From a bacterium (GTDB taxonomy: Bacteria; Patescibacteriota; Minisyncoccia; Phycocordibacterales; Phycocordibacteraceae), in NCBI GenBank assembly GCA_037200965.1, contig JBBCGK010000001.1:96001-160000 (forward strand): a stretch of DNA of 64,000 nucleotides, given 5' to 3'. Within the stretch, counting starts at the first letter, position 1. Each line of letters starts with the position of its first letter. The position numbers were made by a program. This document shows positions 21,001-24,000 of the stretch, piece after piece.

Positions 21001-24000
21001 GCGGTCGGCTGGCCGTCCTATAAGGTGACGATGCGGTATTGGATACTCTCGATCATCTGCGCGATTATCGGCATGAGCATCGCCCTCATCAAATAGCATG
21101 CGCTCCTTCTCCGGAGACCGGACATTCCTCGGGATCGTCACCATCCTCGCCCTTGGCGGCATCGCGATCTTCTCCTCGGCGGCGCTCGGTCTTCTCGCGC
21201 GGACCGGCAGCGCCGTCTCCCATGAGATTCTTTCGCAGGCCGTCCTCGGGCTCGGGGGAGGTATCGTCGCGTTCATCATCGCGCGGCGCGTTCCGCTCTC
21301 GTTCGTTCGCAAAGCTGCTCCGTATGCCTTCCTCGCGTCGCTTGCGCTCACGCTTCTGGTCTTCGTGCCGGGGCTCGGGACGCACGCGAACGGCGCGACG
21401 CGCTGGATCGATGTCGGCTTCACGACCATCCAGCCTGCGGAATTCCTCAAGATCGGCGTGGTGCTCATGATGGCGTGGTACCTCGCGAAGTACGCCCGGC
21501 AGCTCCATGATTTCACCAAGGGCCTTCTCCCGTTCATCGTGATCGTCGGCATCCCGGCGCTCGTGCTTCTCATGCAGCCCAACACCTCGACCACCCTCCT
21601 CATCGGCTCGACCGCGGCGGTGATGTATTTTGCGGCCGGGGCTCCGTGGAGGGATTTCGGCGTGCTGCTGGTTCTCGCGCTTGTGGCCGGAGGCGCGATC
21701 CTCTTCCTTCGCCCCTACGCGCTCGAGCGGGTCATGACGTTCATCAATCCGTCCGAGAACTCGCTCGATTCGAGCTATCAGATACAGCAGTCCCTTATCG
21801 CCGTCGGCTCCGGGGGCCTTGCGGGGCGGGGATTCGGCGAGAGCGTGCAGAAATTCAATTATCTTCCCGAGCCTGACGGCGACTCGGTCTTCGCGGTCTT
21901 CGCCGAAGAGTGCGGGTTCATAGGCGCGGTGCTGTTGGTGCTTTTGTTCGCGGCTTTGGCCGCGCGCGGGATTGTGATAGCGGGGGAGTCGCGCGACATG
22001 TTCGGCGGCCTCATCGCGCTCGGGCTTTCCTGGCTCATTGCATTCCAGGCGTTCGTCAATATGAGTGCCATGCTCGGCATTATTCCGCTTACGGGCCTCC
22101 CGCTTCCGTTCGTCTCCCACGGCGGTACGGCGCTCCTGGTGGTATTGGCCTGCGCCGGGCTTATTTTAAATATCGCGGCGCATAGGAAGCAGACGACGTA
22201 GCATTAAAAGCGAAACGGCGCGTGTTTCCACGCGCCGTTTAGTATTCATTTGTAACCGAATCAATCTTTCAGCTCCCCGATTGCTTGGGCAATCAGGAAG
22301 CTGGCGCTGAGGATGATGAAACCGATTCCGAAAGCACAGAACGCCATCGAGAATTCAAGGCTCGGAATCGGGAGGGACCTGCCATACATCGGAAGAATCA
22401 TCGGCAAAGCGATTCCATGGGCGATGCAGAGTTGGCCGACGACAAAGGGAAAGAAAGCTTTTTCCATACTGCTAACCTCCTGGGCTGGTTTGAGCGGATC
22501 AGCTCCGCAAGATCAATTACTTAAATATCTTAGCATTATGCGTATATATTGTCAATACATGCACTCGAATTCCAGCCTGAAACGCAACAACTGACTTCTT
22601 GAAAAGCGCATACCCGCAGGTACGCTAGGAGCGTTGAACCACCTAAGCGCCATACGGGTATGCACACGCATCTTAACCGCGACCGCAGGGTCGCGCTAGC
22701 CGCTTTGAAAAAAGCGGGAATGAACCAGTCAAGAATCGCGAAGGAGCTCGGCGTACACCGCTCGACGATCAGCCGGGAGCTCCTGCGAAATGCACAGAAG
22801 AACGGTCGATACCATTCGATATGCGCGGATCGCCTCGCGCGCGGCCGAAGGAAAGGGTCGAAGAGAGAATCGCGCCTCCTTGAGAATGATGCGGGTCTGG
22901 AGACGCTCGTCGAGGCGCTCCTCGATCCTCTGGTATCTCCCGAACTGATCGCGCACGAACTCGGTATCAGCCACGAGACCATATACGCATGGATCTCGCG
23001 CTCAAGGCGCGATTTGCTGCCGCGGCTTCCGCAGCGCGGGAAGAAACGGAGACGATACGGCTTAAAACGCTCGAAGAAACAAGGCTGGACACGGCAGGTG
23101 CGCTGCATCGGGGAGCGGCCCGAAGCAGGAGAGAATTGGGAGGGCGATACCGTCAAAGGACGGACGAGAGCGAGACTGCTCGCGCACGTCGAGCGGCGAA
23201 GCCTCTATACGGTCGCCGATCTCATGCCGAACGGTACTGCAGATTCGGTGCATGCAGTATTGAAAAAACATCAGAAGATATCCGGTACGGTCACGTATGA
23301 CCGCGGCAGCGAGTTCGCGCTCTGGCAGATGATCGAGCGCGATACCGGCGCAGCGATCTATTTTGCCGATCCGCACCACCCCTGGCAGCGCGGGAAGAAC
23401 GAGAACACTAACGGAAGACTGAGAAGAATGTACCCGAAGCGTTTCGACTTCGGTACGATACGGCAACGGGACCTCGACGCCGTGGTGTCGCTCATGAACC
23501 ACACCAAGCGAAAGTCCCTCTCTTGGCGGACGCCGTGTTCGCTCTTCAGGGGTGAGTGTTGCGATTCAGATTAGAATTTAAGGCGTATGCGTAGTAAAGG
23601 CCAATAAGTACGGGATGCTATACTTCTCCCCATGAAAATCGTGTTCACCGGAGGCGGCTCGGGCGGCCATTTCTATCCGATCATCGCCATTGCAGAAGCG
23701 ATACACAACCAGGTGCGCGAACAGCGCCTCGTCGCTCCCAAGCTGTACTACGTCGGCCCCTCTGCCTTCGATGAGCAGGCACTGTTCGGCGAGAGCATTA
23801 CTTTTATAAAAAGCGCGGCGGGAAAGCTCCGCCGCTATCCTTCGCTCTGGAATATCACCGATCTCTTCGTAACGGCGTTCGGCATCCTCTGGTGCCTCGT
23901 GACGCTCTTCCGGATTTATCCGGACGTCGTCGTCTCGACCGGCGGCTATATGAGCGTGCCGACAATACTCGCGGCGCATTTCCTTGGTATCCCGATCGTT

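Follow-up and report, generated by a model that had tools for sequence, protein, structure and literature searches.

What fills the space between ftsW and murG in a genome where the two genes stand 1,430 base pairs (bp) apart, and how did it come to be there? The locus lies in a 64,000-nucleotide (nt) stretch of Patescibacteria DNA (GenBank assembly GCA_037200965.1, contig JBBCGK010000001.1, positions 96,001 to 160,000), referred to here, at its full length, as the window. The gap contains an intact IS30-family transposase gene, and very probably a single 1,019-bp insertion sequence (IS) of this family has transposed between the two genes. An original prediction, made from the sequence of the window, had placed the end of ftsW at 22201 and the start of murG at 23632 with about 1.4 kilobases (kb) between them, and had reported in this space a hairpin after ftsW, a 68-amino acid (aa) minus-strand open reading frame (ORF) at 22261-22467, and an intact IS30-type transposase with helix-turn-helix (HTH) and DDE parts. 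This layout held throughout: the gene coordinates agree with the ORF list and with Pfam and NCBIfam matches, the small ORF is in the ORF list, the hairpin has a 12-bp stem at 22213-22240, and the transposase is identified by the profile matches and the DDE core described below. The order along the window is ftsW, hairpin, orf68 (minus strand), transposase ORF (plus strand), murG and gltX.

Identity and ends of the element

The element consists of the following features:

22564-23582, plus strand: IS30-family insertion sequence, 1,019 bp, with a single ORF, delimited by comparison with family homologues
22564-22589, plus strand: left inverted repeat, CTCGAATTCCAGCCTGAAACGCAACA, 26 bp, complementary to the right repeat at 20 of 26 positions
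22660-23574, plus strand: transposase gene, 304 aa, with an N-terminal HTH and the DDE triad D163/D214/E248; stop codon at 23572-23574
23557-23582, minus strand: right inverted repeat, reverse complement CTTAAATTCTAATCTGAATCGCAACA, overlapping the transposase stop codon

The transposase belongs to the IS30 family. It matches the NCBIfam profile NF033563, "IS30 family transposase" (transpos_IS30), over residues 35-285 with 186.3 bits against a curated cut-off of 80 bits; the runner-up profile, IS481, reaches 61 bits against a cut-off of 224. The HTH_38 domain (PF13936, E=1e-11) spans residues 3-44, the rve match is weak, and the ORF includes YFADPHHPWQRGKNENTNG. The residues D163, D214 and E248 are invariant among 71 relatives, with 50 residues between the first two and 33 between the second and third. 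The IS30 family pattern is D-(54-61)-D-(33)-E (PMC2516522); the first spacing thus falls slightly below the family range. The element also fits the family in being compact (1,019 bp, against ~1.0-1.25 kb for the family), in the one ORF that fills it and in its 26-bp terminal repeats (~20-30 bp in the family). Its transposase is 100% identical to a database protein (P0001, "MAG: IS30 family transposase"; MAG, metagenome-assembled genome), and the public record of the source MAG already annotates the element under this name.

The ends were fixed by family comparison; comparison of the region with itself gives a 22-nt arm pair among many chance pairs. A second IS30 relative of the same organism (P0016) is homologous to the window over 22567-23582, and the upstream flanks of the two are unrelated. 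About 40 further relatives from metagenomes show the conserved subfamily termini CTTGAATTC...GAATTCAAG; those of the window element are CTCGAATTC from 22564 and GAATTTAAG up to 23582. When the 64 kb were scanned with a degenerate consensus of the family inverted repeats, only 22565-22588 (plus strand) and 23558-23581 (minus strand) matched, with 0 matches expected. Related copies are 1,000-1,056 bp long. The original prediction had treated the element as about 1.4 kb; it measures 1,019 bp, and the remaining 362 bp on its left form a separate orphan-gene cassette. The right end, predicted to lie less than 60 nt from the murG start, is at 23582, 49 nt ahead of the murG ATG. The partial inverted-repeat matches noted earlier around CGCATAC are replaced by the true repeats at 22564-22589 and 23557-23582.

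Other candidates for the ends were rejected. One of the CGCATAC matches (22608-22616) belongs to a leader hairpin within the IS, of which it forms the 5' arm, and the others are flank sequence (22537-22545 and 23583-23593). Breaks of Logan contigs at 22602/22603 coincide with a 33-nt stretch, 22599-22631, common to the P0016 element; the Logan assemblies break there because this stretch is identical in the two elements.

The P0016 element (L001 = GCA_015655515.1 JAATEX010000047, L002 and L003) is a second, distinct member of the IS30 subfamily, reported on the same contig and from the same samples. Identity to the window IS is 68% for the transposase and 69% for the DNA, and the 33-nt stretch lies in the leader. 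In the window transposase, the HTH (22660-22790, residues 3-44) gives a borderline Sigma70_r4_2 match, 25.8 bits against a cut-off of 25.7, and the same region weakly matches the sigma-70 profile TIGR02937 (positions 117-156). This resemblance to sigma-70 region 4 may merely reflect general HTH similarity.

The ftsW-murG junction in related genomes

The genes on either side of the inserted block are:

21098-22201, plus strand: ftsW (SEDS family; PF01098, E=8e-97; TIGR02614, 337 bits), left neighbour
23632-24771, plus strand: murG (PF03033 and PF04101, the N and C domains of Glyco_transf_28; TIGR01133, E=1e-63), right neighbour

Pfam and NCBIfam matches confirm ftsW, murG, mraY, a D-Ala-D-Ala carboxypeptidase gene and gltX in the window, and gltX comes next after murG in the ORF list. 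Relatives were located via MurG (59-68% identity) and are MAGs labelled Candidatus Kaiserbacteria, Paceibacterota or Patescibacteria; the source organism is Kaiserbacteria-like (Patescibacteria). The order dac-mraY-ftsW-murG-gltX is kept in most of 80 related loci. For 74 relatives the ends of both genes could be located; their ftsW-murG spacers have a median length of 24 nt, and 60 of them do not exceed 111 nt. Neither the transposase, whose presence at this position in related genomes, free of inverted repeats or target duplication, the original prediction would have taken as a sign of a domesticated gene, nor orf68 occurs at the junction in any of the 74. Given this absence and the short spacers, the 1,430-bp gap is therefore derived, and the comparison upholds the proposed insertion of an IS30-family element between normally adjacent genes. 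Adjacency as such holds for most relatives; it fails in 14 of the 74, which have other accessory genes in between.

Three further assemblies of the same organism, found through orf68 and MurG, show the same arrangement as the window; look-ups of the exact transposase protein, entered as the window sequence or as P0001, gave no match. One (L084, GCA_015655515.1) matches window positions 18261-23078 at 99.94%, reaching into the IS. The Logan contigs L085 and L086 contain the left flank up to 22603, and L099, also from Logan, begins at 22602 and continues through the transposase, murG and gltX.

The insertions in the 14 exceptional relatives are 190-1,924 bp long, and the genes in them include those for PemK/MazF and HicA toxins, NUDIX hydrolases, a VIT-family protein, NYN and EEP nucleases, and an ATPase of the ATP-binding cassette (ABC) type. 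The ftsW-murG junction is a recurrent islet for accessory DNA in this Patescibacteria clade and a tolerated insertion point; an IS insertion here is thus unsurprising.

The accessory genes lie at the junction in L023, L038, L039, L056, L060, L069, L071-L074, L076, L077, L081 and L082, in most of them immediately ahead of position 5001. HicA at the junction is accompanied by a UPF0150-like partner. Short, structured-looking inserts were also seen in the spacers of L013 (103 nt) and L020 (111 nt) and in those of L011, L026 and L049 (60-75 nt). One of these two groups contains GGTAGTAAGACTTGGCCTAGCGGCC...GGAGCGCGACC and the other is rich in GCCTA/TAGGC repeats; these inserts may be miniature repeat elements.

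The orphan-gene cassette

Judged by its sequence, the 362-bp segment left of the IS (22202-22563) is a separate cassette that is not borne by the IS. It has a G+C content of 47.8%, compared with 55.3% for the window, and its features are:

22213-22240: GC-rich hairpin with a 12-bp stem, terminator-like on both strands by terminator scan, the inverted repeat being 100% complementary
22261-22467, minus strand: orf68, an orphan 68-aa ORF with two hydrophobic segments by hydropathy
22527-22555, minus strand: sigma-70-type promoter-like site for orf68 (TTGACA, 17 nt, TAAGAT, with TG before the -10)

The T-run of the hairpin is better on the minus strand, where the hairpin follows orf68. The orf68 ATG is preceded at 7 nt by a GGAGG Shine-Dalgarno sequence (22475-22479 in plus-strand coordinates). 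The promoter-like site, with 10 of 12 consensus matches, is the sole one that the consensus scan finds in 22100-23750, and its -35 hexamer is 8 nt outside the left end of the IS.

In a word-indexed search of 5.8e9 proteins orf68 matched only itself ("hypothetical protein WDN10_00710", P0121), and a full HMMER scan of 1.84e9 representatives found no homologue; an extra HMMER match (P0122) was rejected as a tandem-repeat artefact. No Pfam, NCBIfam or PADLOC match was obtained for orf68. With the cassette as query, neither blastn nor tblastx gave a match in any of the fetched loci or in the remainder of the window, and Rfam gave no match in 22100-23750 at E values up to 1. With its complete-looking signals, orf68 could encode a lineage-specific product, either a small membrane protein or a toxin-like peptide; it may also have no function.

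Transcription of murG

It was suggested originally that murG, with the IS so close upstream, may be transcribed from an IS-borne or hybrid promoter. Such a promoter is not needed, as murG has kept a motif of its own, and none is predicted at the right end of the IS, where the consensus scan gave no promoter-like match directed towards murG. The motif is:

23616-23624, plus strand: TGCTATACT, an extended -10-like motif (TGnTATACT), 7 nt ahead of the murG ATG and conserved in the clade

Nearly all of the short ftsW-murG spacers of relatives have a TGnTATACT-like motif a few nt ahead of the murG ATG. Of 80 relatives, 66 have a -10-like hexamer, TA[TC]A[ACG]T, no more than 30 nt from the ATG, compared with 1.9% of random 30-nt windows; when a TGn prefix is required as well, 44 of 80 and 0.4% remain. 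The commonest spacing to the ATG is 6-7 nt. The motif is kept whether the spacer upstream is 7 nt or 1.9 kb long, and in 11 of the 14 relatives with junction inserts a -10-like motif is still in the last 40 nt before murG. Thus murG appears to have its own extended -10 promoter and an mRNA that is leaderless or nearly so. Possession of this promoter-like motif next to the start codon is the likely reason why the junction accepts foreign genes. The terminator scan found no terminator-like site between 22241 and 23750; with none after the transposase gene, read-through into murG is therefore possible.

The window contains 8 cases of TATACT separated from an ATG by 5-8 nt, with 0.46 expected, and 5 of the 8 open ORFs of 120-449 aa. 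Sites of this kind were listed at window positions 8663, 14835, 23619, 26088 and 34420 (minus strand) and in the murG upstream regions of L004-L083. This suggests that leaderless or near-leaderless starts with predicted extended -10 promoters are widespread in the lineage. A literature search found no direct precedent for leaderless genes in Patescibacteria, which is not proof of novelty.

Direct repeats at the element ends

A short target-site duplication, of 2-3 bp, is typical of the IS30 family. Exact 3-bp repeats abut the element in 9 of the 35 related insertions for which both flanks are available, with ~0.7 expected. Longer direct repeats flank two relatives. One, of 11 bp, is in L088, where an element of the P0015 type (1139-2153) sits inside an Nramp transporter gene; the other, of 28 bp, is in L108. 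At the window locus the flanks contain:

22537-22563 (left copy) and 23586-23612 (right copy): degenerate direct repeat with core TATGCGTA, identical at 17 of 27 positions

The repeat has an 8-nt exact core and is marginally significant (shuffle p ~0.02, genomic-control p 0.035-0.05), and its right copy is not flush with the right end of the IS. A long target duplication that has decayed would explain it, as would chance, and it is suggestive only.

A leader hairpin over the transposase start

Upstream of the transposase gene two further features were recognized:

22599-22626, plus strand: putative transposase promoter, TTGAAA (22599-22604), 16 nt, TACGCT (22621-22626), read by eye from the alignment
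22608-22663, plus strand: leader hairpin in which the 5' arm GCATACCCG (22608-22616) pairs with CGGGTATGC (22655-22663), the latter containing the transposase ATG (22660)

Both hexamers are conserved in position across relatives and fall below the threshold of the consensus scan. The window leader folds with a minimum free energy of -24.6 kcal/mol (z = -2.5), and an equivalent helix is present in the minimum-energy fold of 35 of 35 distinct related leaders. The stem, when anchored on the ATG, shows covariation, with 2-3 different Watson-Crick pair types at 5 positions, for example, G-C, C-G and A-U at position -5 and G-C and A-U at +3. The IS thus appears to limit its own expression by a leader hairpin that hides the start codon. 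The 5' arm falls inside the promoter spacer, between the -35-like and -10-like hexamers. Transcripts from the element's own promoter would consequently lack the arm, and only transcripts reading in from outside would hide the ATG.

IS10 and IS50 show fold-back inhibition of externally initiated transcripts. The likeness is that a stem hides the transposase start and that the 5' arm of the stem precedes the transcription start predicted for the element itself. The differences are that IS10 and IS50 belong to other IS families and that the start sites in the window IS are predicted ones.

Origin of the arrangement

We propose that the ftsW-murG space had already been enlarged by the orphan-gene cassette, with its hairpin, orf68 and orf68 promoter, and that the IS would then have transposed between two diverging promoter-like sites. 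Its left end came to lie 8 bp upstream of the orf68 TTGACA and its right end 33 bp upstream of the murG extended -10. With a landing between these two sites no gene and no core promoter is split, and the insertion is most likely near-neutral. murG is probably still transcribed from its own promoter close to the start codon, giving a leaderless or nearly leaderless mRNA; read-through from the transposase gene, which has the same orientation, may contribute.

Several observations weigh against this reading or parts of it. The triplets abutting the IS, GCA and GCG, match at 2 of 3 positions and do not make a clean target-site duplication, and the 27-nt repeat is matched at only 17 of its positions. 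The inverted repeats are imperfect (20/26). The IS is present in every assembly of the organism, with no empty-site allele of the species among them, and only one copy lies within the 64-kb window, so that current mobility is unproven. RNAalifold, run on the MAFFT alignment of the leaders, gave no consensus structure, one subgroup being a column out of register; the hairpin is supported by the per-sequence folds anchored on the ATG, which were used in its place. The promoter assignments are consensus matches only.

It is unlikely that murG and the downstream gltX now owe their transcription to a promoter of the IS, to an IS/flank hybrid promoter or to transposase read-through, and that the insertion has thereby rewired division and cell-wall expression. 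The idea draws on the co-orientation of the transposase gene with murG, the lack of a terminator-like site in 22241-23750, the hairpin after ftsW, which could block read-through from ftsW to murG, and the ability of IS30 to form promoters at inverted-repeat junctions (PMC9333248). However, TGnTATACT is kept at the clade-typical 7 nt from the murG ATG, the right IS end shows no promoter-like site, and the motif adjoins murG in 66 of the 80 relatives, so that murG seemingly has its own promoter everywhere. It is very improbable that the 1.43-kb block, from the hairpin through orf68 to the transposase, moves as a whole and that orf68 is a passenger or accessory gene of the IS. In favour of this are the adjacency of the two parts, their absence from all relatives examined and the G+C content of the orf68 segment, which is below that of the genome, but family homology and both inverted repeats bound 1,019 bp that exclude orf68. 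Moreover, a third copy of the inverted repeat was found neither left of orf68 nor elsewhere in the 64-kb window, 0 of about 60 related IS copies have an orf68-like gene, and no homologue of orf68 turned up elsewhere.

A fixed transposase, possibly domesticated or a decaying relic that no longer moves, would account for the imperfect repeats, the lack of a clean duplication, the single copy in the window and the identical site in all four assemblies of the organism. This is distinctly unlikely in view of the full-length ORF with its invariant DDE triad and the agreement of the inverted-repeat tips, promoter hexamers and leader hairpin with those of multi-copy relatives. Absence of the gene from the junction in 74 relatives also gives no sign of long-term retention at the locus.

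A target pattern in the subfamily

The placement of the window IS next to a -35-like hexamer recurs in its subfamily. TTGACA, with one mismatch or none, is found at offset 8 outward from the element in 20 of 77 distinct flanks, with 0.46 expected (binomial P ~4e-27); nearly all other offsets have no more than one or two TTGACA-like hexamers. The hexamer points away from the element. By our own count from the listings, a TAnnnT hexamer follows at 16-18 nt in 14 of the 20. Among the 35 insertions with both flanks, the hexamer is present on exactly one side in 19 and on both sides in 0. The 8 intervening bases vary from case to case, and copies with one and the same transposase differ in the side, left or right, on which the hexamer stands; the hexamer is therefore part of the flank and not of the element.

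The pattern is a statistical one, and active targeting or survival of harmless insertions both fit it. We tentatively propose, at a little below an even chance, that this Patescibacteria-associated IS30 subfamily selects its target by a sigma-70-type -35 hexamer, landing 8 bp upstream of it (5 bp in addition to a 3-bp duplication), with the hexamer at a single end and the element always directed away from the promoter, in a "promoter-upstream safe harbour". The transposase HTH could be the reader of the hexamer. For the window, the geometry suggests that orf68 and its predicted promoter were present first and that the IS was drawn to, or survived only at, that spot. If true, the safe-harbour strategy would explain how such elements persist in the packed essential operons of tiny genomes, as at ftsW|murG and rpsJ|rplC (L092). 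If targeting is involved, the 8-bp rule would be an unusual and testable target choice for a bacterial transposon. A literature search found no direct precedent for promoter or -35 targeting by IS elements, which is not proof of novelty.

The 8-nt geometry was recorded in the window and in L092, L097, L100, L102, L109, L113, L114, L117 and L124, and further in L134, L135, L180, L183, L184, L193, L195, L198 and L199.

Relation to known insertion sequences

The find itself, an IS30-family element in a tolerated intergenic spot, is routine. What lifts the element somewhat above a routine IS are the side observations: its promoter-proximal placement, the hairpin, the variable junction and the leaderless-type motif. 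As by-products, the analysis yields a permissive ftsW-murG junction, the exact ends, leader hairpin and 3-bp duplication of a subfamily, and a testable -35 target rule.

IS30 is about 1.2 kb long, whereas the window IS has 1,019 bp. The subfamily further differs from IS30 in its 3-bp abutting repeats (9/35) and in the one-sided TTGACA signal 8 nt from one end. IS30 of E. coli has 26-bp inverted repeats, duplicates 2 bp of its target cleanly, and inserts by preference at near-palindromic hot spots or at its own inverted repeats (PMC9333248). Transposition in its family follows a copy-out-paste-in route via a circle or dimer in which the inverted repeats abut (PMC9333248). Shared with IS30 are the single ORF filling the element, the HTH and a DDE motif with 33 residues between the second D and E, the 26-bp repeats and, if targeting is involved, the choice of specific targets (PMC9333248).

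The layout of the 26-bp inverted repeats is also that of the typical IS30-family members ISLxc3 and ISLxx5 from Leifsonia and IS1655 from Neisseria. The ISLxc3 repeat, CTTGGGTTCTAACGGTCGTTGCAACA (PMC2516522), and the consensus of the window subfamily, CTTGAATTCTAACCTGAAGTGCAACA, both start with CTT and end with GCAACA. The hosts of that group are Actinobacteria and Neisseria, in contrast to Patescibacteria here, and ISLxc3 is 1,511 bp long with no conserved target found (PMC2516522). IS1630 of Mycoplasma fermentans, also of the IS30 type, generates duplications of 16-26 bp (PMC3317919). The long direct repeats in L108 (28 bp) and L088 (11 bp) and the degenerate 27-nt repeat in the window are similar in kind; most of the informative subfamily insertions differ from IS1630 in showing 3-bp repeats.

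Elements related to the window IS are found in many contexts. For example, P0116 occurs on 23 contigs, and a relative of the P0020 type in L092 (1370-3030) lies between the genes for ribosomal proteins S10 and L3.

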